Position numbers and translations under genes: made by a program. Under the pieces are notes generated by a model that ran no database searches, had not been told where the DNA came from, and worked only from the letters and a program-made list of their open reading frames with translations. DNA of 52,403 nucleotides from a virus. The stretch is from IMG/VR virus record IMGVR_UViG_3300032782_000001, positions 1 through 52,403 of that record; one strand, 5' to 3'. Below, piece after piece: positions 2,817-40,059 of the stretch (within the stretch, counting starts at the first letter, position 1; the number at the start of each line of letters is the position of its first letter).

Positions 2817-3272
2817 TCAAGATGGGACGACGAAATTTCCGCTTGAAAGAGCTGCCTGAAGGGACTTCATCATCACTTCCGGCGGGACGACACGCACGTC
2901 TCCCTCGACATCCGCGGCCATCCCAACCAGATCTTCCCAAGTGGCCGGAGGCGTCTCACCCTCCTCCAAATCCCACCCGACTTGGTCCCAAACCCCCTCC
3001 ATGTCGTCGTAAAGACCCATGGAGCCCCTGGTCCCACCCCCATGGATTTTCTCGTCAGCCGCTTCCACCGCGGCAGCCATCTCCGGAGTCCCTCCACCCG
3101 GAACTTTGAAAGCCTGCCATCCCCACGGCCCACTAACCGCCACATACGCGTCGCTCATAGCCGCCAGTACGCGGCGCAGCGCCGCACTTACGCGGACGCG
3201 ACTCGGTTTTTGACTGCGGTCAATTTTATCCGCAATTTGGCGCAAAGAAGCAGCAACCCGAGAAGGCGTCAT
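2817..3272 (-). CDS. hypothetical protein, paralog of 14874..15284 (shared N-terminal 40 aa PSRVAASLRxIADKIDRSxxPSRVRVS)
   Basis: ORF track trimmed to Met6 by comparison with the paralog; the shared 5' region contains an in-frame copy of the cassette at about 3150-3205. Confidence 0.6.
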   Translation of the reverse strand: MTPSRVAASLRQIADKIDRSQKPSRVRVSAALRRVLAAMSDAYVAVSGPWGWQAFKVPGGGTPEMAAAVEAADEKIHGGGTRGSMGLYDDMEGVWDQVGWDLEEGETPPATWEDLVGMAADVEGDVRVVPPEVMMKSLQAALSSGNFVVPS

Positions 3273-3414
3273 GCTTCTCTCCGTCAAAGGAGTTTTAGAA
3301 TCACGTCGCCACTTGCGTCAGCGGACCAAATTTTTGCCCCGCTTGCGTACGCGCGCGCAGGTATGGCAGGTATTTCTGCGATCCCTGCCAGGGATCGAGC
3401 CGATCCTTCTAGTT

Positions 3415-3585
3415 AGGTTCGCCTTTTTGGCGTTTCTTTACTGAAGAGCCAAGTCATTCCGAGCACGGTGGTCACCAACCCCACCAAGAAGTAAGGCGGC
3501 GGGTATTCGTAGAGAAGCGCACCCAGCAAAGTAAAGCTGAGTCCGGAGATCACCAGGGCGACGGGAAAAAGGCGAGGCTTCACGA
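3415..3585 (-). CDS. possible small 2-TM membrane protein (57 aa, GTG start)
   Basis: hand-translated; no SD; sits right after a terminator-like hairpin (3598-3646) followed by TTTTT; weak. Confidence 0.2.
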
Positions 3586-3659
3586 GTAAAAACCGGACCC
3601 TGGAGCCGCATGGTCGCCGGTTGGAGGTGACGACGGTCGGCTCCAGGGTCCCAAGGTGT

Positions 3660-3845
3660 TCAGTCGATGCGCCGCGCCTCCAAGCCCTTCTTCGTCGGAC
3701 GAAGGGTTCCGTCCACCTCGACGATGAAACCCTTCTTGACGAGGGCGAATCGCCGTCGACCGTCGATGGCGTGGGCCGGACACGGCTCCTTCACGTCGTC
3801 GCAATAGACAATTGAGAGCAGGGCCATCCAGGTTTCGAAAGTCAC
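3660..3845 (-). CDS. hypothetical protein (61 aa)
   Basis: ORF track; AAGGAGGAATCGCC-GTG start overlapping the upstream stop (GTGA). Confidence 0.5.
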   Translation of the reverse strand: MTFETWMALLSIVYCDDVKEPCPAHAIDGRRRFALVKKGFIVEVDGTLRPTKKGLEARRID

Positions 3846-4201
3846 GGCGATTCCTCCTTCTTAGAACGCTCTGCGTCAAGGACCTTCTTGGCCCGGACGA
3901 ACAACTCCCGCCAGTAGACGTGGCTGAAGTAAACGGAGATAGACGAGTTCTTCCCCGGATTGAGGCCCCGGAGGCACTCGAGCAAGTCAGCATCCGAAAG
4001 CCCGTTCGCCGTGGCGAACGCTGCCTCGTACTGCGCTTGAGGAACGAGATTGAAGAGCTGCTCCACGAGCGGAACCTTCTCAGGTAGGTCCGGCGGACCG
4101 TCGCTCGGAGCCGGCGCGTTGTCCTTCACCAGCTTGGCAATGGCCTGAAGCTGGGCCTTTGCCTCCTCGAGCTTGTGCTCAACTTTCTCGTCGGATCCCA
4201 T
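3842..4201 (-). CDS. hypothetical protein (119 aa)
   Basis: ORF track; GGAGGTTTTGATTAA-ATG. Confidence 0.6.
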   Translation of the reverse strand: MGSDEKVEHKLEEAKAQLQAIAKLVKDNAPAPSDGPPDLPEKVPLVEQLFNLVPQAQYEAAFATANGLSDADLLECLRGLNPGKNSSISVYFSHVYWRELFVRAKKVLDAERSKKEESP

Positions 4202-4245
4202 TTAATCAAAACCTCCGACCGATCTTACGTTGAAAAGCAGAAGGT

Positions 4246-4473
4246 TTACGACGTTTCGTAGACCTTCAAACTCTCCCACGCCGGGATAGCAAACTGCTCG
4301 TCGTAGTCCCGCTCCGTGTCGTTCATGTCCTGCCGCCAGTCGATCTCGTGCTGATAGCAGGACTTGCAAACGATGGCATTGGAATCGCCACCCGTCGGCA
4401 GAAGCCGGACTTCACCTTCGACGCAGATCCCGAGCTGCTTGTCACAGCGAGGATTGTTGTAATGAGTCGCCAA
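4246..4473 (-). CDS. Cys-rich small protein (75 aa, TTG start)
   Basis: ORF track 4246..4650 trimmed to Leu60 (TTG), which follows GGAGGTGACGAAC; the residues upstream (PEVTNL) are the cassette read-through. Confidence 0.5.
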   Translation of the reverse strand: MATHYNNPRCDKQLGICVEGEVRLLPTGGDSNAIVCKSCYQHEIDWRQDMNDTERDYDEQFAIPAWESLKVYETS

Positions 4474-4520
4474 GTTCGTCACCTCCGGATCCAAATACGA
4501 CCGGAGGTGACGAACTTGCG
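4474..4520 (-). promoter_or_regulatory. conserved upstream cassette, palindromic variant (17-bp arms AAGTTCGTCACCTCCGG / CCGGAGGTGACGAACTT)
   Basis: read directly; central TCGTATTTGGAT. Confidence 0.55.
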
Positions 4521-4528
4521 CCGTCGCG

Positions 4529-4999
4529 TCAGTCCAGACGATCGTCCTGACCACAACGAGGGTCGCACTGGCCCGGAGGCGCCCCGCACTCCTCGCAATC
4601 GTCCGAGTGGTCTTCCGGGTCGGAATTGTCATCGCAGATGGGAGTCCCACCCAAGGCTTCGAGAACCGCCGTCACCGTCTTGCAAACGGACGTCTCGGCC
4701 GTCCGAGGAGAACAGAGGGTCTCGCAAATTTTCCAAGACCGGACGTATTGCCAACCGTCGACGTAAGGAAGGGACAATCCCTCCCAACGGTCGTGACGCC
4801 AAGGGATCTCCCCGTGGTTCTCCTTGTCGATGTGCTTCGCCAACAGGTCGCAGACGACCCGGGCAAGCTCCTCCGAAGCACACAGGACCAAATGGTCCGT
4901 GTCCGGAGCCTCCCCGTCGTAATCGCCGTAGATCGCCCAGCAAGGCACGGCCAGAATCGGCTTGGCCAACTCGTAGATCTTCTCGAGGTCCTCAGTCAC
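4529..4999 (-). CDS. hypothetical protein, Cys/Asp-rich C-terminus (156 aa)
   Basis: ORF track; GTG start after GGAGGTGACGAC; cassette at 5000-5050. Confidence 0.6.
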   Translation of the reverse strand: MTEDLEKIYELAKPILAVPCWAIYGDYDGEAPDTDHLVLCASEELARVVCDLLAKHIDKENHGEIPWRHDRWEGLSLPYVDGWQYVRSWKICETLCSPRTAETSVCKTVTAVLEALGGTPICDDNSDPEDHSDDCEECGAPPGQCDPRCGQDDRLD

Positions 5000-5062
5000 G
5001 TCGTCACCTCCGCGATCGGATACGACGCGGCCCGGCGGATTTCTGCGATCGCGCCGAGTTCT

Positions 5063-5359
5063 TCAAAAACTCCCGGCGGTTGAGCTGCGGTCGAACGACA
5101 GGATCATGTCGTTCCCGAAGAGTTTCTCGGCCACCTTCCGGTTCTCCGTCGGAGTTCCTTCTTCCAAGGGATGGACTTTGGAAGCCGGCACCCGGACGTT
5201 CTCGTACATGGAGTGCCACTTCACGACGTACGTGACCCTTCCAATCCCCGGCTTCCGATTCGGGTCGAGCTCGTTGGAGACCACCTCGCCTTCCACGAGC
5301 CGTCCCTTGAGGACGAAACCGACCTTCGAACCCTTCGGAAGAACCTTGTAACCACTCAT
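5063..5359 (-). CDS. hypothetical protein (98 aa)
   Basis: ORF track; AGGAGGTGATGGCCGG-ATG; cassette at 5360-5410. Confidence 0.6.
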   Translation of the reverse strand: MSGYKVLPKGSKVGFVLKGRLVEGEVVSNELDPNRKPGIGRVTYVVKWHSMYENVRVPASKVHPLEEGTPTENRKVAEKLFGNDMILSFDRSSTAGSF

Positions 5360-5437
5360 CCGGCCATCACCTCCTGCCCCCGATACGCCGCGGAACCGCC
5401 AGATTTGCGCCCCGGCTTCAAAGGGGACCTTTAAAGA

Positions 5438-5638
5438 CTAACTCTTCATGACTTCAAGGATGATTTTCTCTTCGCAAGGGACCCACTCCGGAACGGGTCC
5501 AGTACCTTGGACTGGCACGTGGAGATTCCAAGGAGGCTTCCTGGAAGACCAGTGGACTCCTCCGCATTTGGAACACCTCCATTTTAGAGCTCCTTCGGGT
5601 TCTTCCTGGACCCAGACGTGCCCCGAATGTCTTCCCAT
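5438..5638 (-). CDS. small Cys-rich protein, tail ...ILEVMKS (V-[MH]-x-S tail family)
   Basis: ORF track. Confidence 0.5.
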   Translation of the reverse strand: MGRHSGHVWVQEEPEGALKWRCSKCGGVHWSSRKPPWNLHVPVQGTGPVPEWVPCEEKIILEVMKS

Positions 5639-5654
5639 AAGCTAAAACGTAAAT

Positions 5655-5692
5655 TCGAACCGGTCAGACGTATCCGGAATCAACAAACATAA
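5655..5692 (+). promoter_or_regulatory. orphan plus-orientation copy of the cassette boxes (CGTAAATTCG..GACGTATCCGG) without SD
   Basis: read directly; followed by G-rich degenerate repeats (GGAAGTTCCGG-like) antisense to the minus ORF 5716..6276. Confidence 0.35.
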
Positions 5693-5715
5693 ATGTACCG
5701 GAAGACGGGATCATT

Positions 5716-10442: not shown

Positions 10443-10724
10443 TCAAACCCACTCGAAGCCGAGACAGGAAAGGACGCTGGAAAGCCAGTCTCCGATGAGC
10501 TCCGGGTCCTGATCGGTGTCTCCCTCGAGGAGCTCGCCGTACTCCTTGTTGGCCTTTTGGATCTCCTCCCAGAGCTCGAACTTGTTGAGGGCGTCCGTGC
10601 CGATGCGCTTGTCGTTTCCGAAGTGGAACTTCCCGCCTCGGAGTTCTCCTTCCGCTTCCAGCTCATCCCAAGCCGCGTCGTACTGCTCGAACGTGGGGAG
10701 CTCGCCGTAGGTCATCGAGATCAT
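10443..10724 (-). CDS. acidic hypothetical protein (93 aa)
   Basis: ORF track 10443..10970 trimmed to Met83 after GGAGGTGACGCG; cassette at 10725-10790. Confidence 0.6.
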   Translation of the reverse strand: MISMTYGELPTFEQYDAAWDELEAEGELRGGKFHFGNDKRIGTDALNKFELWEEIQKANKEYGELLEGDTDQDPELIGDWLSSVLSCLGFEWV

Positions 10725-10915
10725 CGCGTCACCTCCGCGATCGGATACGCCGTGACTCGTTGGATTTACGATCGCGTTGTACGGTTCCCTAAGTGATCGT
10801 CCTTGACGATATTCCGACTTGCACTGCGGACCTCGGCGGTCTTTGGGATGATGAACCTCTTTGCAAGAATCCGGTCCGGTGGGTATTAGTGACACCCAAC
10901 GCTTGCCGACACTCC

Positions 10916-11032
10916 ATGGATGATTTTCCAGAGGGAGTTTGTGATGAGCATAAGATGCATCTGCGCCCAAGAGATGATCAAGTCATCCTGAGCGTAGAAG
11001 AATTCATCTGCTACGACGTCTCTACCTCTTGA
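10916..11032 (+). pseudogene. possible degenerate, inverted tail-family member (...SVEEFICYDVSTS)
   Basis: plus-strand ORF amid minus genes, no RBS, imperfect tail. Confidence 0.25.
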
Positions 11033-11590: not shown

Positions 11591-11667
11591 GGTGGACCGG
11601 AAGGGATTCGAACCCTCAGTTAGGAAGTTTTTAAAACCTCTGTGTCTGCCTTTTCCACCACCGGTCC
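11591..11667 (-). tRNA. tRNA-like gene, anticodon UAA (Leu-type anticodon but short variable arm)
   Basis: 7/7-bp acceptor GGACCGG/CCGGTCC, T-arm GAGGG-TTCGAAT-CCCTT, anticodon arm GAGGT-TTTAAAA-ACTTC, 3-bp D-stem, 77 nt ending ACC; coordinates approximate. Confidence 0.55.
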
Positions 11668-14787: not shown

Positions 14788-14873
14788 ATGTCGCCTCCGG
14801 CACCGAATACGACGCGGCCCGGCGGACTTACGACCGGCCGGGCCCTAGACTTTCAAGCGTAATTGCTTTAACG

Positions 14874-15284
14874 TCAGCTTACGCCGAGGAAATCGGCGAC
14901 GGCATCCATTACGATCTGCTGGATCCCTTCGGGATCTTGCGTAATATCGAAACCCGGTTTCCCCTCAATGCTCCCGTTCTTCCAATCCCAACCGCCGACG
15001 TTGCCCGCATCGTCCAGCATCAAAATCATGACGCCAGCAACAGGGTTCCCATCGACCAGTCCTTGAAACTTGGCTGCAGGTTCATTTGGTTTCTTTGTAA
15101 CTTCCGTCATCTCTAGACGGTATCCGCCAGGCTGCATCGGATCGCCGGATTCCGCCTCGCCTTCGTTCATACTCGCGAGTACGACGCGGATCGCCGAACT
15201 TACGCGGACGCGACTCGGATTGGAAGATCGGTCAATTTTATCGGCGATCTCTCGCAAGGAGGCGGCAACCCGAGAAGGTATCAT
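14874..15284 (-). CDS. hypothetical protein, paralog of 2817..3272 (shared N-terminal 40 aa)
   Basis: ORF track; about 130-nt identity block with 3145-3290 including an in-frame cassette copy at 15165-15225. Confidence 0.6.
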   Translation of the reverse strand: MIPSRVAASLREIADKIDRSSNPSRVRVSSAIRVVLASMNEGEAESGDPMQPGGYRLEMTEVTKKPNEPAAKFQGLVDGNPVAGVMILMLDDAGNVGGWDWKNGSIEGKPGFDITQDPEGIQQIVMDAVADFLGVS

Positions 15285-16621: not shown

Positions 16622-16957
16622 TCAGTCGAACACACCGCGCTGGCAAGCCTCCTCGAGGCTGTAATCTTCCTCGTCTTCCTCGTCTTCCTCGTCCTCGTCG
16701 CTCTCGTAGGCGACTTGCGGAAAGTACACGATGACGTCGCGACCCATCGAATCGCTGTGGGCTCCTTGCAATTCCTCCGCGATCGTCTGCATGTCGCACG
16801 AGACGTCGGCGGCAGCCTGGAAAAGTGCCCCGTAGATCTCGGTGATGCTGGACCCCTCGATGCCGAGGCAATCCTTACCGAACATGAACCGGCCGGAATA
16901 CGACCGGACGTGGAGCTCCGCGGCCTCGGCCAAATCTTGCAATGCGCTCTTCGTCAT
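16622..16957 (-). CDS. hypothetical protein with polyacidic C-terminus (ESDEDEEDEEDEED)
   Basis: ORF track 16622..17236 trimmed to Met94 after GGAGGTGACGAA; TCTTCCTCG x3 tandem repeat on plus strand; palindromic cassette at 16958-17010. Confidence 0.55.
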   Translation of the reverse strand: MTKSALQDLAEAAELHVRSYSGRFMFGKDCLGIEGSSITEIYGALFQAAADVSCDMQTIAEELQGAHSDSMGRDVIVYFPQVAYESDEDEEDEEDEEDYSLEEACQRGVFD

Positions 16958-17016
16958 TTCGTCACCTCCACGGTTCGATACGCGCGGAGGTGACGAATTT
17001 GCGCCGGCCGATCGAC

Positions 17017-17472
17017 TTATTCCTTCCGGATGCTCTGGATCATCTCCTTGGCATGCCGGTCGGCGTAGTTCGCGATGTGTCGCTGAATGTTGTCGAGGTC
17101 CCGGAAAGCCCGGTCCACCCGAGTGGCCAGGAAATCCTTCGTGGACTCCTTGGACTTGAAATCGATCTGGAGATCCTTTTTGATCGCCTCCATTCGATTG
17201 AGCGCGTCGACCAACATCTTCAGGCGCGCGTTGCAAACCTCATCGACCTTGGCGACCTGGCCGTTGAGCTCATCGATCCTCTCGGCCAACTTGATCACAT
17301 CGGGCTTCTGACGGGGTCGCTTGACGAGATACGCCCCGTGGAATCCGAACGGGCCCACGGAGGTCCGGTCGTCGACGAACTCCCATCCGTCAGACGTGTG
17401 CTTCTCGAGTTCGCTCCCGCGAACTTCCTTGAAAACGAAGCCTTCTCCGCTGGTCGCATTCGTGTCGGTCAT
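17017..17472 (-). CDS. hypothetical protein (151 aa, coiled-coil-like C-terminus)
   Basis: ORF track; GGAGGCGTT-ATG; cassette at 17473-17525. Confidence 0.65.
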   Translation of the reverse strand: MTDTNATSGEGFVFKEVRGSELEKHTSDGWEFVDDRTSVGPFGFHGAYLVKRPRQKPDVIKLAERIDELNGQVAKVDEVCNARLKMLVDALNRMEAIKKDLQIDFKSKESTKDFLATRVDRAFRDLDNIQRHIANYADRHAKEMIQSIRKE

Positions 17473-18514: not shown

Positions 18515-18814
18515 TCAGCGATATGGACTGTCGGCCTTCCTGTCGGGGAGTTCACGAATGGCTTGGACGACGAATCGATACTTGCCCTGGAAAATCAGGA
18601 TGGTCTGGTCATCTCCGTGCCACGTGAAATAAGTGAAATCCGTGTCCTTGTTCGCCCCGAGCTCCGCTCCCAGCTTGAAGAAGACAGCATCCCTTTTGCC
18701 GGCTCCAAGGTCTTGAGGTTGGATGACCCGGGTTGCTGCCTTGAAGAGCGCGTCGGCGTCCTTGGAGTATGCGATCTCTTCGAGGAAGGTGGAATATTCG
18801 AGCTTCGCATTCAT
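18515..18814 (-). CDS. hypothetical protein (99 aa)
   Basis: ORF track trimmed to Met26. Confidence 0.45.
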   Translation of the reverse strand: MNAKLEYSTFLEEIAYSKDADALFKAATRVIQPQDLGAGKRDAVFFKLGAELGANKDTDFTYFTWHGDDQTILIFQGKYRFVVQAIRELPDRKADSPYR

Positions 18815-18822: not shown

Positions 18823-19212
18823 CTACGCCGAGCGGCGGCGAATTTGATCCGTCTCTATCCAACTTTGTTCTGGCGTGCAACGAATCCACGAACGATAGAA
18901 TTCATCGCTTTCCACCAGGAGTTTATCTCCAGCACACTCAATTTCAATCAGACCGAGGAGCCCATAGAGACCTTCATGGATGCTCAGGAAGCCGCCTTTA
19001 GGCCTGGCTGCCAAGATTTCCGTGATGTGAGACACGGTTCCCGGTGCCAAAAACTTAATGACAGCCGGATTCTTCCAGGATCCTTCGATCTCTTTGCGAG
19101 AAAGGGGCCTCACCCGAATCCAAGAGTCACCTATCTCGGTGCGCTTTCTCCGGCGATTATGTTCCAGAACGAAATTTCCGACTTCTTCCGAGAAGTCCCA
19201 TTCTTCCTTCAT
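18823..19212 (-). CDS. hypothetical protein (129 aa)
   Basis: ORF track. Confidence 0.55.
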   Translation of the reverse strand: MKEEWDFSEEVGNFVLEHNRRRKRTEIGDSWIRVRPLSRKEIEGSWKNPAVIKFLAPGTVSHITEILAARPKGGFLSIHEGLYGLLGLIEIECAGDKLLVESDEFYRSWIRCTPEQSWIETDQIRRRSA

Positions 19213-23731: not shown

Positions 23732-24174
23732 TGGAGGGGGACTTCAGTCAGCTCTGACATCTGGAGACGCATCCGTTCTACGTGATCTGAAAATGCGAGG
23801 TAATCACCTCGAGAAGCTGCCCAGCAAGCAGCTTCTCCCCAAAAAGCGCATGCCTCAAGAGCGAGGCGCCAATGGCGAGATGCTCGAGGTGCTTCATGGA
23901 CACGAATCCTTTGAAGAATTCTACATGCTGCTGCGAGGGTCCGTCGACATTCTACGGGGCCAAGTGATCGAAGATGGCCACTCATTTCAGGGAGACCAGC
24001 CGCATCAGTCATACACGGCATGAGTTGACGGACAACCGAATCAGCTTCAGGCAAGAGCTCCATGCTTTGGGAAGCACGCGGGTACAAAGACTTCATTCCA
24101 ACAAGTTACAACAGAGCCGCGAGCTCCGCAAATTCGACAGATCGGCACGTATGCAATTGTCAGGAGGTGCCGAC

Positions 24175-24801
24175 ATGTCGGACAACAAGAAGGGTTCGAG
24201 TTACGAGAGGATTTACCAAGCACTGCTGGACACGACGGAGGGCAAGGGGATCCAGGCGCGGGTGAAGCAGGCCATCGAGAACGTTCGGGTCACGGGCTAC
24301 CAGTTCAAGCTCAACAGCTCGGACGACGGACGGCCCGTCGCCGTGCCGCATTTCACGACGAACTGGGCGAAGGAACGGTCCTTCACGAAGAACAACATCT
24401 ACTGCAGCGTCTACGATCTCTTCACTACCGAAGAGTTCAATGCCATCGTGGAGGCCCACTTCGAGAAGGATGTGAAGACGTTCTTCTGCCGCAAGGACAC
24501 CGTGCTCAAGGGTTGCCGTGACGAGCGTGGCCGCAAGCACATCTCGTCGTTCGCTGCCTGGGCAGGGACTCAGATCGAAAATCTGACCGCCGACATCCGG
24601 GACGCAGCCGTCATCCGCCTCGAAAGTCAAGCTACGGAGCTTGCGTCCACCGCGGATTTCTTGCAGGACAGGCACAACGCGCTCCTGCGGTTCTGCCACG
24701 ACGAGGTGGTTCAGGTCATGTCGCGCTACGCGTTTCTCGGGACGGACGTCCTGAAGGGCGCACTCAAGGAGTTCTGCGTGGCAGATGTGATGGAGGCGTG
24801 A
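24175..24801 (+). CDS. hypothetical protein (208 aa), tail ...EFCVADVMEA (tail family)
   Basis: ORF track 23974..24801 trimmed to Met68 after AGGAGGTGCCGAC; cassette at 24125-24174. Confidence 0.6.
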   Translation: MSDNKKGSSYERIYQALLDTTEGKGIQARVKQAIENVRVTGYQFKLNSSDDGRPVAVPHFTTNWAKERSFTKNNIYCSVYDLFTTEEFNAIVEAHFEKDVKTFFCRKDTVLKGCRDERGRKHISSFAAWAGTQIENLTADIRDAAVIRLESQATELASTADFLQDRHNALLRFCHDEVVQVMSRYAFLGTDVLKGALKEFCVADVMEA

Positions 24802-25891: not shown

Positions 25892-27001
25892 ATGCTCACG
25901 AACATCAACGAGATCGATCAAGAGACGCTCATGCGGGTTCTCCGCTTCACGATCAAGTCGGGGGGCAATCTCATGACCTTCGGGCCGGCCGGCATCGGCA
26001 AGACCGAGATGGCCATGCAGGCCTGCAAGGAGGAGGGTTACAGGTTCGTCTATCTGAACCTGTCCGTCCTCGAGGCTCCGGACATGGTGGGCCTGCCGCA
26101 GGTCCAGGATGGCAAGACGAGCTATGCTCCGCCGGAGACCATCCCGCTGCGCGACGACAACCAGAAGAAGGTGGTGCTGCTCGTGGATGAGGTCGACAAG
26201 GCCAAGCCCGAGCTGCAGAACCCCTGCCTCGAGCTCTTCCAGTTCCGCGCCATGAACGGTCGCGAGATGAACATCCACAGCGTCATCGCGACGGGCAACC
26301 TGCCCGACGAGGGCGCCTTCTCGCAGCCCGTCAGCCACGCGCTCACGAACCGGTGCCTCGTGTTCAGGGTCACTCACGCCTTCGATCCGTGGCTGCAGTG
26401 GGCGACCGGCCCCGCGGCGGTCCATCCTCTCATCGTGGGCTTCCTCAGCAAGAACCCGGAGTACCTGCTCATGCCGGATGCCTCGGGTGACACCACGGCT
26501 TACTGCCATCCGAGCCCTCGCCAGTGGACCCTCGCCGCGAAGGACCTGGAGCACACGTCGACGGCGGACCACATCGACTTCCAGACGCTCCTCATCGCGG
26601 GTCGCGTCGGGACGGCGGCCGCCGTCAAGTTCCGGGTCTGGCTGGAGCACTACCGCCACGTCGAGCCCCTCATCGAGGCGCTCGTCAAGAAGGGCGAGCA
26701 CCCGGACATCAAGAACATGGCGATCGACCGCCAGTTCGTTTGTGCCCTGAGCGCCGTGGGTGCCATCGCAGCCGAATGCCGCAAGACGCTCGCCCCTGGC
26801 AAGGACAAGGAAGAGCAGAAGAAGAAGACCCACAAGTACACGGAGAACGTCTTCACGTGGCTCGGGAAGCTCCCCTCGGAGTTCGTCATCGGGGCCGTCA
26901 AGACGGTCCTCAACATGAAGATGATCCAGGACTACGACCTCACGAAGATCGCTCCGTTCATGCAGGAGTACATGAAGGTCAGGCAGGCCTTCAAGGACTG
27001 A
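25892..27001 (+). CDS. MoxR/AAA_5-type AAA+ ATPase
   Basis: Walker A GPAGIGKT, Walker B VVLLVDEVDKA; ORF track trimmed to Met6 after GGAGGTGACGCGA; cassette at 25840-25891; 11-bp perfect hairpin CCGAGTCTGCG..CGCAGACTCGG at 27027-27083. Confidence 0.8.
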   Translation: MLTNINEIDQETLMRVLRFTIKSGGNLMTFGPAGIGKTEMAMQACKEEGYRFVYLNLSVLEAPDMVGLPQVQDGKTSYAPPETIPLRDDNQKKVVLLVDEVDKAKPELQNPCLELFQFRAMNGREMNIHSVIATGNLPDEGAFSQPVSHALTNRCLVFRVTHAFDPWLQWATGPAAVHPLIVGFLSKNPEYLLMPDASGDTTAYCHPSPRQWTLAAKDLEHTSTADHIDFQTLLIAGRVGTAAAVKFRVWLEHYRHVEPLIEALVKKGEHPDIKNMAIDRQFVCALSAVGAIAAECRKTLAPGKDKEEQKKKTHKYTENVFTWLGKLPSEFVIGAVKTVLNMKMIQDYDLTKIAPFMQEYMKVRQAFKD

Positions 27002-27465: not shown

Positions 27466-28428
27466 ATGACCAAGGCAGCCGCTAAGCAGTCCGTTGTCAC
27501 CAGCCTCAATCAACTCGAGCATCTCTTGAGGTCTCAGGAGACTTCCACTCCCATCACGGACGTAGCACTCTCGGCTGCCGCTGCCAGGGAGATCATCGAG
27601 AAGTGGGGCAAGGGAAACAGGCCTGTCTCGGATGTGACGGTCCAAAAATATAAGGGGGATATGGAGAACAACCGCTGGCGTTCCCATTCCCCCATCGGGT
27701 TCGGTGTGTTTCCGGACAAGATTCAGATTGGCGATGGGCAGCACAGGCTCATCGCACAGGACAAATCCTCCACCACGCAGGTCTACAGCGTTCAAGCATT
27801 CTCGGATAGTGACGAGTTCGAGGTCTTCGTCAAGACGGTGGACTCTGGGAAGCCCCGGAAGTTGTCGGATCTCTTCAGCATCCTCGAGACCTTCCCCCCG
27901 AATCAGTCCGCTCGGGCCCAGGCCATCACCAATTTCATGATGAAGTTTAGTGACATCAAGCTCACTACCGAATCTCAGCAGGACAAGGTGGACTATGCCA
28001 CTAGTCACCTCAAAGCCATCAGGTTCGCTTCCAGCCTGAACTCGAAGGAGTTCCAATCTCACGTCGCCGCGGCAATCGCCATCGCTCACAAGAAGCATCA
28101 GCGTGTTGTCGAAGCATTCGTGGATGCTGTTCACTCTGGTGTCGGCCTTGCAGCTGGTTCTCCAGCTCTCGTATTCAAGAATGCACTCAATGATTTGAAT
28201 TGTATCGCGCTGACCAACAAGAAGGAGGTCAAGCCTCGAGATCGTGCAATGGCAGTGACTTTGCGGGTGATTTACGACCACGCTCGCAACAAGAAGACTT
28301 CACACGTCAAAAAAACTCGCACGGACTCGAAGTACCTCCATGAGGTGATTACGTATTTCATCTCTTCGGATGTCGCTGACCAGTATCTGGCTCGGCATGC
28401 CAAAGAGGACACTTCTCACACTCCGTGA
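27466..28428 (+). CDS. ParB/Srx-fold protein with DGQHR motif (DndB-like family)
   Basis: IQIGDGQHRLIA motif; AGGAGGG RBS. Confidence 0.65.
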   Translation: MTKAAAKQSVVTSLNQLEHLLRSQETSTPITDVALSAAAAREIIEKWGKGNRPVSDVTVQKYKGDMENNRWRSHSPIGFGVFPDKIQIGDGQHRLIAQDKSSTTQVYSVQAFSDSDEFEVFVKTVDSGKPRKLSDLFSILETFPPNQSARAQAITNFMMKFSDIKLTTESQQDKVDYATSHLKAIRFASSLNSKEFQSHVAAAIAIAHKKHQRVVEAFVDAVHSGVGLAAGSPALVFKNALNDLNCIALTNKKEVKPRDRAMAVTLRVIYDHARNKKTSHVKKTRTDSKYLHEVITYFISSDVADQYLARHAKEDTSHTP

Positions 28429-28435
28429 GGTATTG

Positions 28436-29365
28436 ATGGACATCAGGCATGTTCCGATTGAGGTCGACGACATCGTCGTCGACCATGACGTCATGATCCG
28501 GGATCGTTTGGATGAATCCTGGGTAAGGGAGCTCGCTGCCCTTTACGAAGATCGTCATCAGATCGATCCGATTCTTCTCATGAAAGACAAAGACGGAATC
28601 ATCCGCTTGGTGCACGGATTCTATCGGGTGGCCGCGCTGAAAATGTGCGGCCATTCCGGTACAACTGCAGAGATCCGCGAAGGTTCAAAGGATCAAGCCA
28701 TTCTTGCTGCATGCAGGGTGGACCATCATGGGTTGAGGAGGACTATTCAAGAGCAAAAGAAGGCAGTATTTCGGGTGAAAGAATCAGCCGAAATGAAGAA
28801 TTCAAGTAATAGGGCCATCGGAATTTATTGTGGTATTCCGGAGTGGGCCGTCGTCAAAATTCTTTTGGGCGAGGAACCTATCCTTGGTCCCAGGGTTTGC
28901 CATGTTTCAGTTCCTGGCGAACTCCCTTTGAAGAAGAACTTGACTGCCCTCTACGCGAAAATCGACTCGGCTCTCCGAGCTAATCCGAGCATGAATAGCA
29001 CGGAAATCAGCAAACTCTTGAAGTGCAACAGGGCGCTCGTTGCGAAGAGGCGGATTGAGATCGGAGTTCCTCAGGCTAACTTTCCGGGAAAGGCAAAACC
29101 TGAAGCTCGAGCCAGTATCATTGAATTACTGAAAAATAACCCCAAAAGGACTCTGGCTTCTATTGCTGAAGAGGTGGGAGTAGCCCCGTCCACTGTCAGT
29201 GGGATTAGGGACAAGCTACTAAAGGAGAAGAAGGAACAAGACGAGAAAAAGAAGGAACAAGCCCCGGCTCCCTCTGATGAAATGCCTTCGGCTCCCTTCA
29301 GGAAGGGAGCCCAACCCGATCCTCGCCTTACGTTCCAACAGTATAAGGTACGTTCAGGATCTTGA
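28436..29365 (+). CDS. ParB-like N-terminal domain protein with C-terminal HTH
   Basis: ILLMKDKDGIIRLVHGFYRVAALK (ParB GxxR box), HTH-like TLASIAEEVGVAPSTVSGIR; ORF track 28370 trimmed to Met23 after TGAGGTATTG; 15-bp hairpin downstream at about 29478-29513. Confidence 0.65.
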   Translation: MDIRHVPIEVDDIVVDHDVMIRDRLDESWVRELAALYEDRHQIDPILLMKDKDGIIRLVHGFYRVAALKMCGHSGTTAEIREGSKDQAILAACRVDHHGLRRTIQEQKKAVFRVKESAEMKNSSNRAIGIYCGIPEWAVVKILLGEEPILGPRVCHVSVPGELPLKKNLTALYAKIDSALRANPSMNSTEISKLLKCNRALVAKRRIEIGVPQANFPGKAKPEARASIIELLKNNPKRTLASIAEEVGVAPSTVSGIRDKLLKEKKEQDEKKKEQAPAPSDEMPSAPFRKGAQPDPRLTFQQYKVRSGS

Positions 29366-29899: not shown

Positions 29900-31387
29900 A
29901 TGCAGATGTCCGATGTCTCCAGGCTGAAAGACCCGAAGCGGGTCTGCACGAAGGAGGACGGGTCTTACGACCACGCCCGTCTCGCCCTCTTGCAAAAGAA
30001 GGTTTCCGACTGCATGACGAAGATGTTCCGCAAGCCCGAGGGCGGCGGAAACCCCTTCCTCTACGCCCTCACCCTGCCCAAGCCGCACGAGCTCGCCATC
30101 GAGCTCCCCGGGCCCAATGGGAAGGACTTCCACACGGCTGCCACCGACGGCAAGAAGTTCTGGTGGCACCCGGACTTCCTCGAGAAGCTGGACTCGGAAG
30201 AGGTGCCCACGGTCATGGAGCACGAGGGTTATCACGTGATCCTCTTCCATCCGCAACGTGGCGTGGGGACCAACCCCCGCATCTTCAACTGGGCGATCGA
30301 CTACGTTGTCAACGCCATCATCGAGACCAATCACAAGCAGCTCAACCGCAAGGGCAAGCTTTGGGGCGGGAACCTCGGCGAGCCGCTCTCGTTCGCGGAT
30401 CTTCTCTCGTACATCGATGGAAATTCGGAGCTCCCGAAGGACAAGAATTCCATCTTCGTGGACGTCTCGCTTCACGGACGGAGTCCGGAGTCGATCTACG
30501 AAGAGATCATGGATCATTGGGACAAGAGTCCGCGCAAGTGCTCTCTCTGTACGTGCCTGTCCATCGATCCGAAGACTGGCAAGCCCATCCACGCCCTTCA
30601 CGGCAAGAGCCCAGTGCCGCCGGAGAAACCGCACGACCCCCACTGCGACGGGACCTGCTGTCCCAAGTGTGGCGTCAAGTCGGACCCGCTCGGGTCGATG
30701 GACGCTCACATCCCGGGCGCCCTGACGAAAGATGAGGTCATGGCGGATATCATGCGCGCCAGGGACCAGTCGACGGCCATGAGGGGCACCGTTCCCTCCG
30801 AAGTGGAAGATGCGCTCAAAGAGCTGATGAAGCCTACGCTGAAGTTCACGGACATCGTCAAGTCCTGCTTCATGCGCAAGATCCAGGATGCTGGGATGAA
30901 GAACGACTGGAAGCGCTGCCGACGCCGGTGGTTGGCCTCCAATCCCAAGCAGTATCTCCCGAGGCGCCACACTCATCGGCCCCGGTGGCTTGCGATGGTG
31001 GACACCAGCGGCTCCATGCAGGACGATGATCTCCTCTACGGAATCTCTCAGCTCAAGGTTCTGGGAGACAACACGGAAGGTTACGTCATCCCCTGCGACG
31101 CATCTCCGAAATGGGATGCCATGCAGAAGATCGACAAGGCCACGGACCTGCAGAGGACCAAGATCGTCGGGCGCGGAGGAACGGTCTTCGATCAGTTCTT
31201 CCAGGACTTCCCGAAGAAGATCGGGACGGACTTCGACGTGGTGGTCATCATCACGGACGGAGACTGCGGGACGATCCCCCTGCACCTCAAGCCGCCGTGC
31301 GATGTCGTCTGGGTCATCACCCGGACCATGAAGGAGTATAAGCCCAGCTTCGGACGCGTGGCCCCGCTCCGCCCCTCTCGGATGTGA
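29900..31387 (+). CDS. VWA-domain protein with N-terminal HExxH metallopeptidase-like module (DUF2201-like partner of MoxR ATPases)
   Basis: HEGYHV motif, MIDAS DTSGSM; GGAGGTGACGAA-ATG; cassette at 29850-29899. Confidence 0.75.
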   Translation: MQMSDVSRLKDPKRVCTKEDGSYDHARLALLQKKVSDCMTKMFRKPEGGGNPFLYALTLPKPHELAIELPGPNGKDFHTAATDGKKFWWHPDFLEKLDSEEVPTVMEHEGYHVILFHPQRGVGTNPRIFNWAIDYVVNAIIETNHKQLNRKGKLWGGNLGEPLSFADLLSYIDGNSELPKDKNSIFVDVSLHGRSPESIYEEIMDHWDKSPRKCSLCTCLSIDPKTGKPIHALHGKSPVPPEKPHDPHCDGTCCPKCGVKSDPLGSMDAHIPGALTKDEVMADIMRARDQSTAMRGTVPSEVEDALKELMKPTLKFTDIVKSCFMRKIQDAGMKNDWKRCRRRWLASNPKQYLPRRHTHRPRWLAMVDTSGSMQDDDLLYGISQLKVLGDNTEGYVIPCDASPKWDAMQKIDKATDLQRTKIVGRGGTVFDQFFQDFPKKIGTDFDVVVIITDGDCGTIPLHLKPPCDVVWVITRTMKEYKPSFGRVAPLRPSRM

Positions 31388-31743: not shown

Positions 31744-32070
31744 ATGAACCTTGCAGGATCTCCCAAGCTTGTCGCCAGCCAGCTGCGCAAATTCTTATCG
31801 TCGGCGCGTATCGTTGCGTCGGAAGTTACTGATCCTGTAATCTGGGAGGCGGTCTGTAAGGACCCGAGCTTTTCGGGTCTCATTGAGACGGGTGCAGTAG
31901 CAAGTGCTTACCGGGCTCGGACCCAATTTCTTGGTAGGGACCGGAGGGATTTAACGGTTTACGTCTTCGTCAACTCTCTTACCTTGGATATTGTCGTCCA
32001 TTTCCGGACGAAAAATGCCATGCAAACCATCGTCAACAATGCGGTTATCCAATCCGTAATGGAATCCTGA
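31744..32070 (+). CDS. hypothetical protein (108 aa), tail ...NAVIQSVMES (tail family)
   Basis: ORF track 31669 trimmed to Met26, 3 nt after the upstream stop. Confidence 0.5.
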   Translation: MNLAGSPKLVASQLRKFLSSARIVASEVTDPVIWEAVCKDPSFSGLIETGAVASAYRARTQFLGRDRRDLTVYVFVNSLTLDIVVHFRTKNAMQTIVNNAVIQSVMES

Positions 32071-34809: not shown

Positions 34810-34810
34810 A

Positions 34811-36310: not shown

Positions 36311-36311
36311 A

Positions 36312-36599: not shown

Positions 36600-36862
36600 G
36601 CAGCGTGCGCTTCCAGCCCGATGGCCTTCTTCATCGCCTTGGTCATCCAAGGAGCAGAGGCCAGATATGCCTGGAGTGCTTCGTTACTCGGCAGGTCCTT
36701 CACCTTACCTTCGCCCTTGATGATAGAGAGCACGATGCTATGAATCCTAGCATCATGTCCAGGTGCGAACCTGGAGCTCGTCTGCGCCTTGCAGCCACAG
36801 AGACAATGCTTGGAAGTCGCCTTGGTCGCAGTGACCTTGGTCGCAGTCTTCTTGGTCTTCAT
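36596..36862 (-). CDS. basic Cys/His protein (88 aa; MKTKKTATKVTATKATSKHCLCGC...), possible DNA-binding
   Basis: ORF track trimmed to Met18 after GGGAGGAAATACCCAT; convergent with upstream plus genes. Confidence 0.45.
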   Translation of the reverse strand: MKTKKTATKVTATKATSKHCLCGCKAQTSSRFAPGHDARIHSIVLSIIKGEGKVKDLPSNEALQAYLASAPWMTKAMKKAIGLEAHAA

Positions 36863-36943
36863 ATGGGTATTTCCTCCCTTGAGGAAACTAAACCCATCTT
36901 GGAATTCGCACAAGTTCGGAGAATCCCGAACCCGACGTCGGAC

Positions 36944-37336
36944 TCACCCGAGGTCGTCCATGTCGGGCGGACCCGCCGGTGCTGGGTGTGTGCCGGCGTC
37001 GGCGGGCTCGGGCGCGGGCTCGGCGCCCAGCTCCTCCTCACCTCGCGCCTCCTCGATCGACCCCGCCAGCTCCGCCGCCTCTTCGGCAAGCTTCTCAAGC
37101 GCTGCCTTTCCGAAAATGACTTTGAAAGCTTCGGCGTCCACTTCTTGAGCCGTGTCAACCCGAGTCACCTTTTGGACGTCGAAGGTCTCCACTGAACATT
37201 CTACTTCGTATTCTACGGCCTCTCCCGATCCATCAGCTAGGACAGCCATAACCTTCACCTCGGAAGGTGCGCCAGTCTCAGCCGCACGACGCGACTTGGC
37301 GGCGAGGATGTCCCTAGCGATCTTCAGGAAATTCAT
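36944..37336 (-). CDS. hypothetical protein with acidic Pro/Ala-rich C-terminus (130 aa)
   Basis: ORF track. Confidence 0.5.
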   Translation of the reverse strand: MNFLKIARDILAAKSRRAAETGAPSEVKVMAVLADGSGEAVEYEVECSVETFDVQKVTRVDTAQEVDAEAFKVIFGKAALEKLAEEAAELAGSIEEARGEEELGAEPAPEPADAGTHPAPAGPPDMDDLG

Positions 37337-37409
37337 ACTCCTTGAAGGTTACCAAAGTCTTAGACTGGCTTCAAGGATTCCCTGTATTTGCTATCCCAGG
37401 CGTGAGGTT

Positions 37410-37661
37410 TCATGATTCCATGACCTCTTGAACGACGGCCTCTTCCAGTGACATGACGACGTAAGTCCTCGGGAAGATGAAGTCCCCGGCGCACAATCGA
37501 CACACGGGATATGCCTTCTTTTGGGATGCGTTGAATAACGCGGAATGAACTTGTCTTGGACAATCGAATCCGAACCGGACCTCAGTATAACTGATCGAAT
37601 TGAATTCGCGGACTTCATGAAGGCTCGGGTGAGCGCATTTCATGTGGTCTTGAATGGACAT
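37410..37661 (-). CDS. Cys-rich small protein, tail ...LEEAVVQEVMES (tail family)
   Basis: ORF track trimmed to Met30, 4 nt after the upstream TGA. Confidence 0.5.
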   Translation of the reverse strand: MSIQDHMKCAHPSLHEVREFNSISYTEVRFGFDCPRQVHSALFNASQKKAYPVCRLCAGDFIFPRTYVVMSLEEAVVQEVMES

Positions 37662-37665
37662 GGAG

Positions 37666-37935
37666 TCATGACTCCATGACTTCTCGGACGAGAGCTTCCT
37701 CCGGATCCATTGGGGTAAATAGACTACCGAGAATAGCAGACTTGTCACATTGGAAACAGAGGAAATATGCCTTCTTTTCTTCTTCGTGGTATACGGCTGA
37801 GAACACAGGGTTGTAGCAACCGGAAAGCATCCTGATCCTGTTATGGATCACGGTTGGTTGACAACACTTCAGATGGTGAAGCCGACGCTTCTGAATCCTG
37901 ACGCACTCCTTTTCAGACTTTCCTACGAGTTCCAT
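37666..37935 (-). CDS. Cys-rich small protein, tail ...PEEALVREVMES (tail family)
   Basis: ORF track 37666..38244 trimmed to Met104; the track N-terminus is junk-like. Confidence 0.5.
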   Translation of the reverse strand: MELVGKSEKECVRIQKRRLHHLKCCQPTVIHNRIRMLSGCYNPVFSAVYHEEEKKAYFLCFQCDKSAILGSLFTPMDPEEALVREVMES

Positions 37936-37972
37936 CTGAGTGGTTGCCTCCGTAGATGACAATCTCAAATAA

Positions 37973-38443
37973 CTAGGATTCGTGGACGTCCCGACATTTA
38001 TTGAGTTGACACTCCGTCCCATGTCCTGGGTTGGCATGACGGTTCTTGTTCTCAGCGTGTCGCCCACACCGAGGGCAAATACCGCTTTTGTTGATGCCCC
38101 TCTTCCCGAACCGACGGTAACTCGTCGACGGAACATTCGGCCTCGTTGCAGGTGGAGGGGACTGCCGGCGAATGATATAGGTCGTTCCAACCAATCGGAG
38201 GTGCTCGTAATGCACCAATTCTTCGATGGTGGCTTCAGCGTCATTCATGCTTGCCGTTGGCCAAGCTTGCTGGAGAATGAAGAACACTTGCTCCGTGGAG
38301 ATCTTCTCGATGTGACTCCATCGCGAATCCCCGAATGTGGAGAATCCAAGACCCTTGGGTCGAGCGTGCTTGCCGAATGGATCGACCGTGCACATGATGA
38401 GAGCCGGCATGTCCGTTCGATGCGACTCCTTTCGAAATTCCAT
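37973..38443 (-). CDS. zinc-ribbon protein (CX2CX18CX4C), tail ...KCRDVHES; tandem paralog of 38445..38945
   Basis: shared C-terminus GICPRCG..NKNRHAN.GHGTEC.LN; ORF track. Confidence 0.55.
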   Translation of the reverse strand: MEFRKESHRTDMPALIMCTVDPFGKHARPKGLGFSTFGDSRWSHIEKISTEQVFFILQQAWPTASMNDAEATIEELVHYEHLRLVGTTYIIRRQSPPPATRPNVPSTSYRRFGKRGINKSGICPRCGRHAENKNRHANPGHGTECQLNKCRDVHES

Positions 38444-38444
38444 A

Positions 38445-38945
38445 CTAGCTCTCCATCACCTGCCTAACGCGATTCAATTTGCACTCCGTCCCATGCCCCG
38501 AATTTGCATGACGGTTCTTGTTTTTGGAATATTCACCGCATCGGGGACAAATTCCGGCGTGCGGATTTTGACTGTTGTATCGAGATGGGATCAACGGAGT
38601 TTCTGGGAGATCCGGGAGACTGAAGGCCCGGAAACTGTCTTCTCGAAGGAACCCCTCTGCAAGAAGGATTTCGACGGTGGACTGGACTTCCTCTTGGGAG
38701 ATCTTCTCCCATTTCTCTTCCAAAACCTTGGTGATTTCGGCGAGAGTGACCTTCGAAAGCCGAGCTCGTCGCATCCTTTCATCTTCACGCCTGAGATTTT
38801 CTTCCCAGGGCAGGCGCATTTTGTTTGTCTCTCGATACCTGGCACGACGCTGCGCCGCGGTCGGCCGGAAGGTTACACGAACGTGCTCCGGCATGTCAAA
38901 CTGATGCTGAAGTTTGCGAAAAGCCACAACATCCTCACAATACAC
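38445..38945 (-). CDS. zinc-ribbon protein, tail ...NRVRQVMES; tandem paralog of 37973..38443
   Basis: ORF track; GTG start right after the hairpin CCCGGA..TCCGGG at about 38950-38971. Confidence 0.5.
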   Translation of the reverse strand: MYCEDVVAFRKLQHQFDMPEHVRVTFRPTAAQRRARYRETNKMRLPWEENLRREDERMRRARLSKVTLAEITKVLEEKWEKISQEEVQSTVEILLAEGFLREDSFRAFSLPDLPETPLIPSRYNSQNPHAGICPRCGEYSKNKNRHANSGHGTECKLNRVRQVMES

Positions 38946-38988
38946 GAGAGCCCGGAAGATTTGGCCTCCGGGCTCTCGGGAAGTGGAA

Positions 38989-40059
38989 CTACTTGGTGGA
39001 CTTCACGGTCACCCGGACGCAACCCTTCGGCGTCTTGGCGAAATAGTCCTTGTAGTGCCGAAGGAGCAGGTTCCAAATGATCCGCTTGTGCGTCTCTTGC
39101 TCGCCGGTCGTCGGGTCACGACCCATCAGAGGGCGCTGCTCCTCCCGCACCTCACTCCCGATGTCCACCCGGACAATCTTGTGGAGGGGAACGACCGTCG
39201 CGCGCAGCGGCTTGCTGAAGAAGGCACCCTGGAGGTACTTCAGGGAGTTCGTGAACTGCCACTTCCAATCGGCCTTCTTGCACCAGATCTCGACCGAGCC
39301 GGGGTATTTCTCCGACTCCTTGATCTCGACGACGCAGAGGCTCTCGCGCAGGAGGGAGGCCAGCATCCTGTAGCCGAGGCTCTCGATGGCGTCGGTGCAC
39401 GCCTTGTGGACCTCGCTCTTGCGATTGAGGCTGCAGACGCGGACCAGACCGTTGACCATGCCCCGAATGCCCTGCGGCTTGTAATTCTGGACCAGGAACT
39501 CCACGAGTTCCGGGTACTCCGCCAGATCGATCATGGCCTGCATCTCGTCGCCGTCCTTCGGCTCCTCGAAGTAGCCCTTCTTGCTGCAGATCGGCCCGAG
39601 ACCGCGCTCCACGGACTCGGAGTCCGTCAGCTTCAGCGCGCAGTGGGCGCAATGCGTGCACACGCCCTCGAGGATGAGCTGCCCATGGCGCTGCTTCTGC
39701 TTCAGGACGCCGCCGACGATGCCGTTCTGGGGCAGGTTCAACTGCGCCATCTGCGAGACCAGGACGGGCTTGGGGCCGCTTTCGGGCGCGGGCTCCTCCT
39801 TCGCGGGGTTGCCATCGTTCGACTCGGACGGGTACTCGTCCCGAGCCGAATCCGGCTCGGAATCCATCTCGGCCTGGTAAGCCGCTCGCTCTTGCTCGGC
39901 CTCCTGGCGACCGAATTCGTTCTTCATCGCGATCCAATCTTGCGCTGCTTGATCCATCGTGTCACCTCCATCGTCCGATACGCCGGGAGGCGCCGAATTT
40001 GCGGCTCGCCTGTCGGCTTCTTCTTCAATGCGAAGGAGGAATTCCTTGAGTTTGCTCAT
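38989..40059 (-). CDS. hypothetical Cys/His-containing protein; two candidate starts (40059 coupled by ATGA overlap, or 39957 after the in-frame cassette)
   Basis: ORF track; the cassette (GCAAATTCG..CGTATCGG..GGAGGTGACACG-ATG) lies in-frame at 39958-40015 and encodes ...AANSAPPGVSDDGGDT-M. Confidence 0.55.
   Translation of the reverse strand: MSKLKEFLLRIEEEADRRAANSAPPGVSDDGGDTMDQAAQDWIAMKNEFGRQEAEQERAAYQAEMDSEPDSARDEYPSESNDGNPAKEEPAPESGPKPVLVSQMAQLNLPQNGIVGGVLKQKQRHGQLILEGVCTHCAHCALKLTDSESVERGLGPICSKKGYFEEPKDGDEMQAMIDLAEYPELVEFLVQNYKPQGIRGMVNGLVRVCSLNRKSEVHKACTDAIESLGYRMLASLLRESLCVVEIKESEKYPGSVEIWCKKADWKWQFTNSLKYLQGAFFSKPLRATVVPLHKIVRVDIGSEVREEQRPLMGRDPTTGEQETHKRIIWNLLLRHYKDYFAKTPKGCVRVTVKSTK

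Follow-up and report, generated by a model that had tools for sequence, protein, structure and literature searches.

Organization of the p1 and p2 genes

We analysed a 52,403-nucleotide (nt) stretch of viral DNA (IMG/VR record IMGVR_UViG_3300032782_000001, positions 1 to 52,403; hereafter the window), which is part of a large uncultured phage genome packed with small genes of unknown function. Our main subject is a pair of paralogous genes on its minus strand, p1 (2817-3272, 151 amino acids (aa)) and p2 (14874-15284, 136 aa), which carry in their shared 5' part, and within the coding sequence, the two boxes of a promoter-like expression cassette, of which the window has about 40 copies and from which most genes of this phage would be expressed.

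The cassette was recognized by its boxes. A search with CGTAAGT-N14-CGTA, allowing up to two mismatches, gave 47 matches against 5.2 expected, a number reached by none of 100 shuffled sequences. The motif points in the direction of the genes, and its spacer is constant at 14 nt. In its full form, present in about 36 copies, the cassette reads CG(T/C)AA(A/G)T(T/C)CG, 11 nt, CGTA(T/C), 8 nt, GGAGGTGA(CGA), 0-5 nt, and then an ATG, GTG or TTG start codon. A fixed spacer, over-representation, orientation along the genes and a position just upstream of them are what is expected of a generic two-box promoter of the sigma-70 family. With a weight matrix trained solely on cassettes bearing a Shine-Dalgarno sequence, from which the embedded copies of p1 and p2 were excluded, canonical cassettes mostly score 25-36 bits; the maximum over 30 shuffles was 17.9 bits, and shuffled sequences gave a mean of 0.27 hits per window above 12 bits. 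CGTA and GGAGG are separated by exactly 9 nt in 46 of the 55 Shine-Dalgarno-bearing cassettes of the window and related loci, and this constant spacing points to the first base of the Shine-Dalgarno sequence as the likely start of the transcripts. The same spacing is seen in the window and in contigs L001, L007, L012-L016, L018 and L031, which range from 43 to 71% G+C content (GC).

The initial annotation had described a common 5' block of roughly 130 nt in p1 and p2, a full box pair within it and complete divergence after an internal methionine, and all of this is found in the two genes. Their first 39 codons (3272-3156 in p1, 15284-15168 in p2) share 74% amino acid and 79% nucleotide identity, together with about 20 nt of common leader, and both match the profile of one N-terminal domain (hidden Markov model E=4.5e-22 for p1 and 1.7e-21 for p2). 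The box pair CGTAAGT-N14-CGTA occupies codons 27-35 in each, at 3168-3192 (-) in p1 (CGTAAGTGCGGCGCTGCGCCGCGTA, 21.7 bits) and at 15180-15204 (-) in p2 (CGTAAGTTCGGCGATCCGCGTCGTA, 28.7 bits), with no mismatch in either copy and no GGAGG after it. Over 25 nt, the copy in p2 shares 92% identity with the intergenic promoter at 1632-1608. Exactly 9 nt past CGTA lies the in-frame ATG of Met39, at 3156-3158 (-) in p1, where it is the putative start of a short form, and at 15168-15170 (-) in p2. Beyond Met39 the two proteins are unrelated (BLASTP E=1.1). The C-terminal part of p1, a protein assigned to no Pfam or PHROG family, is linked to P0029/P0021 by a GPWGW motif; that of p2 is modelled by AlphaFold as a five-stranded sheet with a helix and has no convincing structural neighbour.

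The N-terminal domain family

An exhaustive profile search of 1.84 billion cluster representatives placed the N-terminal domain (N-domain) in a family of 211 clusters at E≤1e-3. The domain nearly always forms residues 1-40 of proteins of 80-250 aa with diverse C-terminal parts, the exceptions being a few proteins with two copies or with a C-terminal copy. Both p1 and p2 match the family profile M-x-P-S-x-x-A-x-x-L-R-x-I-A-x-x-I-D-x-S-x-x-P-S-x-x-x-V, and AlphaFold models the domain as two helices, residues 3-19 and 25-40. No relatives of the domain were found in Pfam, PHROG or the PDB (nothing below E=0.1 in the PDB profile search), a protein homologue search with the domain alignment gave no candidate, and nothing was found in the GTDB genomes. 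Scans of IMG/VR with the domain returned either nothing or solely L010 and L011, two members that lack the boxes; a scan of IMG/VR with the DNA pattern of the embedded module gave nine hits with no N-domain gene among them, which we discarded as chance matches.

For comparison with p1 and p2 we added eight genes from independent metagenome contigs that use the same cassette, giving ten genes (p1, p2, L007b, L009a, L012, L013, L014, L015, L016 and L018; 54-71% GC). Over codons 2-26 of these ten genes pN/pS, the ratio of the proportions of non-synonymous (pN) and synonymous (pS) differences, is 0.43 and pS is 0.70, and Ser20 is written AGT, TCT, TCG or AGC. Since synonymous sites are near saturation while the protein sequence is kept, the block is translated, and we rejected the idea that it is a conserved untranslated leader.

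The domain is also found outside the phage lineage that uses this promoter, as L005, a 5-kilobase (kb) peat metagenome contig, carries two box-less N-domain genes (528-686 and 2656 onward, plus strand). One of them encodes a stand-alone protein of 52 aa, and they adjoin a gene for a 642-aa protein whose translation reads, by eye, as a peptidoglycan glycosyltransferase.

Constraint on the embedded boxes at the DNA level

All ten compared genes have the box pair within codons 27-36 and an ATG at codon 39. Could the boxes merely be a by-product of the protein sequence? According to this explanation the box pair has no function and results from the pattern of helix 2, x-V-S-x-x-I-R-x-V-L, combined with shared ancestry. 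The family pattern V28...R33.V35-L36 does predispose to nGTN...nGTNyT, and the sequences are related by descent. We nevertheless find the explanation extremely improbable, because the constraint is exerted on bases that the protein leaves free. The majority base at the 12 core box positions accounts for 96% of the genes on average, compared to 61% at other third codon positions, and pS falls 2.4-fold, from 0.70 in codons 2-26 to 0.29 in codons 27-38. Valine is encoded by GTA in 19 of 20 cases (nine of ten genes at Val28 and all ten at Val35), although GTA is the rarest valine codon in the 34 cassette-led genes of the window (19 of 401, or 4.7%) and is never used at Val6 of the same domain. At codon 34 all ten genes have C as the third base while the residue varies among R, V, A, G and S, and at codon 27 nine of ten have it, with R, L or H as the residue.

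Two further comparisons point in the same direction. Of 137 codons, p2 and its orthologue on L007 differ synonymously at 45 and non-synonymously at 23; two of the substitutions affect box bases, AGT to AAT and CTC to TTG, and both fall within the R and Y positions of the consensus. The phage of contig L031 (43% GC) uses a promoter variant of its own, GTAA(A/G)T-N15-GTAT with (C/A)GTAT as the -10 form, and its embedded copy, GTAAGT-N15-GTAT reading AGTAT, matches that variant, again with an ATG 9 nt past GTA. Taken together, the codon-level comparison indicates that selection keeps the embedded boxes at the DNA level.

The initial annotation had named homologues whose shared domain lacks the boxes as evidence that would count against the embedded arrangement. 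Such homologues exist among the distant members on L005, L010 and L011, and to this extent the point goes against it. In L005a, L005b, L010 and L011 Val28 is GTC, GTG or GTT and position 35 is GTC or another residue, so that the box-less members use other valine codons than GTA; L010 is located on the same 393-kb contig as L001. However, Met39 is missing there too, and therefore these members fit the model rather than refute it. The 43%-GC members L017 and L019 retain partial boxes, and codon 39 of L017 is ATA. Altogether, position 39 is Leu or Ile in the five members that are box-less or have a decayed -35 box (L005a, L005b, L010, L011 and L017).

The internal start and a predicted short form

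In all 11 embedded copies, those of the ten genes and of L031, the ATG lies 9 nt past the GTA of the -10 box, with no Shine-Dalgarno sequence between them; the 9 nt encode L-A-(A/G/S) and include no GGAGG. The internal start is ATG in every copy, whereas cassette-led genes use GTG and TTG as well, and it takes the place of the first bases of GGAGG in an ordinary cassette. Compared to other windows, the 40 nt at the 5' end of the predicted short mRNA have less structure in eight of nine genes (mean z +0.67). Of the features of a nested in-frame gene, a putative promoter on the sense strand within the coding sequence, as judged from sequence and conservation, and an in-frame start downstream of it are both present.

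We propose that in this phage lineage codons 27-36 of the N-domain may double as complete promoter boxes. In promoters recognized by extracytoplasmic function (ECF) sigma factors, the C of GTC is at -10. If the A of CGTA is likewise taken as -10, the transcription start (+1) would fall ten bases further on, at the first G of GGAGG in an ordinary cassette or the A of the ATG in an embedded one, both of them purines. This placement would explain the rigidity of the 9-nt spacing. Transcription would then start at the ATG of Met39 and give a leaderless mRNA for the variable C-terminal domain alone, while read-through from upstream, with a weak ribosome-binding site, would give the full-length protein. 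One DNA segment would serve as both protein domain and promoter, and each gene would have two nested products. Genes with the full-length N-domain have no cassette of their own and start 24-45 nt past the preceding gene with a weak purine-rich stretch before the ATG, so the long form is probably made from read-through transcripts and translated less efficiently than cassette-led genes. We consider it rather likely that the boxes of p1 and p2 are a selectively maintained internal promoter, which probably starts a leaderless mRNA for an isoform consisting of the C-terminal domain only, and two isoforms of p1 and p2 are a reasonable prediction.

What would a transcript from the embedded promoter contain? 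Past p2, the next gene is preceded by a separate cassette, at 14832. An 18-bp terminator-like hairpin lies 40 nt past the stop codon of p1 (2739-2777, minus strand), followed by convergent genes. A separate cassette also precedes the next gene in L007, L013 and L015; in L014 that gene is convergent. Therefore the transcript would mostly cover the 3' part of its own gene. This bears on a second explanation, in which the boxes are functional DNA of another kind (a decoy, a roadblock, a timing device, or a boost to 3' or downstream transcription) and Met39 is purely structural; as a decoy or roadblock they would bind the phage RNA polymerase holoenzyme or a regulator. The constraint on the boxes reveals that they matter without telling their purpose, position 39 is a hydrophobic helix position that is often Met in members that are probably box-less, and the 63-aa gene downstream of L012 has no cassette of its own, all of which is compatible with such a role. 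At most loci, however, the next gene has a cassette, or a terminator or a convergent gene follows, and the ATG, which sits at precisely the position of GGAGG in an ordinary cassette, is shared by all 11 copies with boxes and missing from the five copies that are box-less or have a decayed -35 box. We therefore regard this explanation as unlikely.

Several points weigh against an internal promoter with a leaderless short mRNA. The ten compared genes are related by descent, so their counts are non-independent events. The placement of +1 rests on the fixed 9-nt spacing and on the analogy with ECF promoters, and if transcription started 2-3 nt earlier the mRNA would not be strictly leaderless. Position 39 is hydrophobic throughout the family, with Met in 41% of 160 domains, many of them probably box-less. 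A Pfam scan of 30 open reading frames (ORFs) of the window revealed no sigma factor or RNA polymerase. Finally, candidates for leaderless genes outside the family, with boxes at 18848 (ATG 18814) and at L007 2643 (ATG 2677), score 11-15 bits and are not conserved, and therefore a general class of leaderless genes is not established. In the first of these the box pair (18848-18824, minus strand) scores 14-15 bits, its -10 box overlaps the TAG stop codon of ORF 18823-19212, and the ATG lies 9 nt past CGTA with no Shine-Dalgarno sequence; 18515-18814 (99 aa) may be a leaderless gene, at a score within the reach of chance.

Exchange of the N-terminal module

The similarity of p1 and p2 sets in about 20 nt ahead of the first ATG and is lost within a few nucleotides past Met39. 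The nucleotide identity of the N-terminal module is 0.79 between p1 and p2, 0.72 between p2 and its orthologue L007b, and 0.62 between p1 and the gene on L018 with which it shares the C-terminal domain. For one genome, these values support the copying or homogenization of a module of N-domain and putative promoter between different C-terminal domains. The initial annotation had suggested a modular unit of 40 N-terminal amino acids plus promoter on different C-terminal domains. This is borne out by the family with its unrelated C-terminal parts, and the claim can be extended, as eight further genes conserve the embedded boxes at synonymous sites and the N-terminal modules are closer to each other within the genome.

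These observations also bear on a third explanation, in which the boxes are a substrate or scar of recombination: a homology of about 25 nt would allow the N-terminal module to be swapped, and conservation would come from recent exchange and not from promoter activity. It accounts for p1 and p2 modules that are closer to each other than to orthologous modules and for a homology that stops within a few nucleotides past the ATG. The genome offers many near-identical promoters as partners, as illustrated by the resemblance of the p2 boxes to the promoter at 1632, and there is a precedent in the promoter-stem-loop elements (PeSLs) of T4-type phages (PMC2839356, PMC4122927). On the other hand, codons 2-26 are synonymously saturated while the boxes are not, which argues for long-term constraint and against recent transfer, and exchange with a Shine-Dalgarno-bearing cassette would not give the layout of 9 nt to the ATG. 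As the sole cause of the conservation we consider recombination improbable, but it is compatible with the embedded promoter that we prefer.

A further step would be a mobile promoter-in-domain module with which huge phages tag arbitrary small genes, the untagged product being kept from the leaderless transcript. Because the promoter fixes 9 nt to the ATG, a gene whose start codon coincides with its transcription start would acquire the domain as an in-frame fusion whenever it recombined at the boxes. Genes so captured would be a systematic class with two isoforms, one tagged and one untagged. We offer this as a speculation that is more probably wrong than right by a wide measure.

The gene at 38989-40059

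A third gene had been proposed by the initial annotation as a case of dual isoforms. The ORF at 38989-40059 (minus strand) does have an ATG at 40059 that overlaps the TGA of the upstream gene (ATGA), followed by 34 in-frame codons (peptide MSKLKEFLLRIEEEADRR) that run through a cassette, so this description of the sequence was correct; the proposal of dual isoforms is not supported. The gene, which contains a DUF6011 domain (PF19474; 30.6 bits in Pfam, above the cut-off of 26.6, for residues 135-161 of the long form), most likely extends over 38989-39957 and encodes 322 aa, whereas 39958-40059 is most likely non-coding intergenic DNA that holds the gene's own cassette, with the boxes at 40003-39979, GGAGGTGA at 39969-39962 and the ATG at 39957-39955 (all on the minus strand).

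The two-isoform explanation, a long form coupled through ATGA and a short form from the gene's own cassette, has in its favour the ATGA overlap, the 34 open codons and the gene caller of the public record, which picked the 356-aa long form. The extension scores 0.25 per codon, compared to 0.56 for 38989-39957 and to averages of 0.40 for genes and -0.65 off frame; this value lies within the range of genes, and being ambiguous and mildly coding-like it also counts against a non-coding extension. The relatives of the gene tell otherwise. They are located on IMG/VR contigs of 393, 427 and 197 kb, and the orthologues L001, L002 and L003 all begin where ATG 39957 would be, each right behind a ribosome-binding site, with a recognizable box pair there in L001 and L002; none of the three has the extension or a usable in-frame start further upstream (in-frame stop or no start). 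Moreover, the DNA that precedes 39957 is, over about 85 nt, a paralogous copy of the non-coding region in front of 40745, from which it differs by a frame-breaking 10-nt indel. A sister copy of the 39957 promoter (36 nt, 97% identical) is found there, at 40767-40802 (-), in the divergent intergenic region between 40745 (-) and 40893 (+). Open in-frame extensions of at least 30 codons with a start codon occur in five of 36 cassette-led genes of the window, a number compatible with chance in DNA that is poor in stop codons. We conclude that the 356-aa call is very probably over-extended, with a coincidental ATGA overlap and the real start at ATG 39957; two isoforms of this gene appear highly doubtful.

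The longest-ORF starts of five genes in the window run 34-93 codons upstream through their own cassette (4246-4650, 10443-10970, 16622-17236, 23974-24801 and 38989-40059), and their likely real starts are 4473, 10724, 16957, 24175 and 39957, respectively. Gene callers will tend to make genes of this genome too long, as with 38989-40059 and about four others in the window.

Other cassettes and genes of the window

In the cassettes at 164, 440, 750, 4520, 17003 and, more weakly, 21208 (all on the minus strand), the inter-box spacer TTCGTCACCTCCG and the ribosome-binding block CGGAGGTGACGAA are exact reverse complements. The resulting 15-bp stems have -29 to -36 kcal/mol and z from -5 to -9; among 33 cassettes, 5-6 form such hairpins, with z from -4 to -9. 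From their base pairing, RNA reading through such a cassette would have its Shine-Dalgarno sequence sequestered or would be terminated, and RNA begun at the cassette's own promoter would have no 5' arm.

Some box pairs are followed by no ribosome-binding site. The pair at 4723-4747 (+), which scores 20-21 bits and so exceeds all shuffles, lies antisense within the gene 4529-4999 (-) and is a candidate promoter of an antisense RNA. The promoter at 5648-5672 (+) and its counterpart at L007 222-198 (-) score 22-25 bits and lead into a small hairpin (tccggaatcaacaaa.a.aaat.t.ccg.); promoter and downstream sequence are conserved in L007, a related contig, and the element is a candidate small RNA. 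Promoters at 1455-1431 (-) and 31786-31810 (+), with 24-29 bits, have neither a ribosome-binding site nor a start codon at the usual distance, and a G+C-rich hairpin (gcgcggtggccggccaccgcgc) lies downstream of the former.

A search of IMG/VR with the cassette DNA pattern gave no hits. Of 11 hits in the GTDB genomes, ten are one conserved coding motif (FHKIRRLPPYVFEEVNK) that resembles the N-terminus of an aminotransferase and is carried by metagenome-assembled genomes of Caulobacterales and related Alphaproteobacteria; we rejected the matches as false positives and therefore draw no inference about the host. A literature search found no described promoter of this kind in huge or jumbo phages.

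The recognizable genes of the window serve replication and accessory functions. They encode an AAA_5 ATPase, a DUF2201 metallopeptidase/VWA protein, a ParB-like protein with a helix-turn-helix (HTH), an ATP-dependent DNA ligase and a metallophosphoesterase. The AAA_5 (MoxR-like) ATPase, ParB-like/HTH and DUF2201 metallopeptidase/VWA genes are clustered at 25892-27001, 28370-29365 and 29900-31387 (+), with a separate cassette in front of each. A tRNA-Leu with the anticodon TAA (11591-11667, minus strand) is the sole hit of Rfam or ARAGORN in the window. The DNA ligase gene (45017-46285) is found with identical sequence on the 102-kb ENA metagenome contig ERZ27256589:k141_4065419, and megablast with 25 kb of the window gave no match to GenBank phages at the DNA level. 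On the P0038 contig (JGI 3300050821) a 260-aa Sigma70_r4/r4_2 protein and a 5'-3' exonuclease are encoded directly upstream of an N-domain gene, a neighbourhood that hints that the promoter-using phages encode their own sigma factor.

Comparison with known systems

In phage T4, a late promoter inside the coding sequence of gene 49 gives rise to a shorter in-frame protein. The ftsW/ftsWs pair of Caulobacter crescentus is an in-frame nested gene with an internal promoter, and both internal promoters that yield shorter in-frame proteins and efficient leaderless translation are established in bacteria (PMC4117421). Like these two cases, p1 and p2 carry within the coding sequence a putative promoter that is followed by an in-frame ATG, so that a long and a short protein are possible. 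In contrast to them, the promoter here would reside within a portable 39-aa domain found on unrelated C-terminal parts, its synonymous sites are conserved across phages of 43-71% GC, its products are predicted from sequence, and the ATG lies 9 nt from the promoter, implying a leaderless short mRNA.

The cI gene of phage lambda is expressed from PRM as a leaderless mRNA. In C. crescentus 375 leaderless mRNAs have been described (PMC4117421). The short mRNAs proposed here would resemble them in having no Shine-Dalgarno sequence, an ATG (never GTG or TTG) at the predicted 5' end and a weakly structured 5' region. The rest of this genome, by contrast, uses an unusually strong Shine-Dalgarno sequence (GGAGGTGA), and leaderless starts would be the exception.

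A similar geometry is found in the promoters of ECF sigma factors. The promoter of Bacillus subtilis sigma-W (ECF, group 4) reads TGAAAC-N16-CGTA, and ECF promoters in general have 'AAC' in the -35 box and 'CGT' in the -10 box (PMC5758882). The cassette shares with sigma-W promoters two short boxes, a rigid spacer and CGTA at -10, and its distance from 'AA' to CGTA agrees within 1 nt. Its -35 box, however, is CGYAA(A/G)T, with T and not C after AAR, and lacks the AAC; therefore we use ECF geometry as an analogy only. PeSLs (PMC2839356, PMC4122927) are comparable as repeated promoter elements before many small genes of unknown function, and the strong hairpins of 5-6 cassettes and the signs of module exchange in one genome may add to the likeness. 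The consensus differs, though, the hairpins here pair the promoter spacer with the ribosome-binding site, and the element of p1 and p2 is located inside the coding sequence.

Implications

Nested genes with internal promoters are a known kind. What would be new is their domain-borne, synonymous-site-conserved and apparently leaderless version, and as judged from the aligned genes a promoter embedded in a portable protein domain and co-evolving with it appears to be a previously undescribed arrangement. Promoters inside genes are usually discovered singly by transcriptomics. Here the signature comes from comparative sequence alone: the rarest valine codon is fixed twice, third bases stay constant where residues vary, and the embedded copy tracks the promoter variant of each phage.

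If this explanation is true, the proteins that carry this widespread, unnamed N-terminal domain in uncultured large phages would also be made without it, and gene callers would misplace starts in such phages as a rule. The geometry of the cassette would moreover predict transcription starts to the nucleotide across these genomes.

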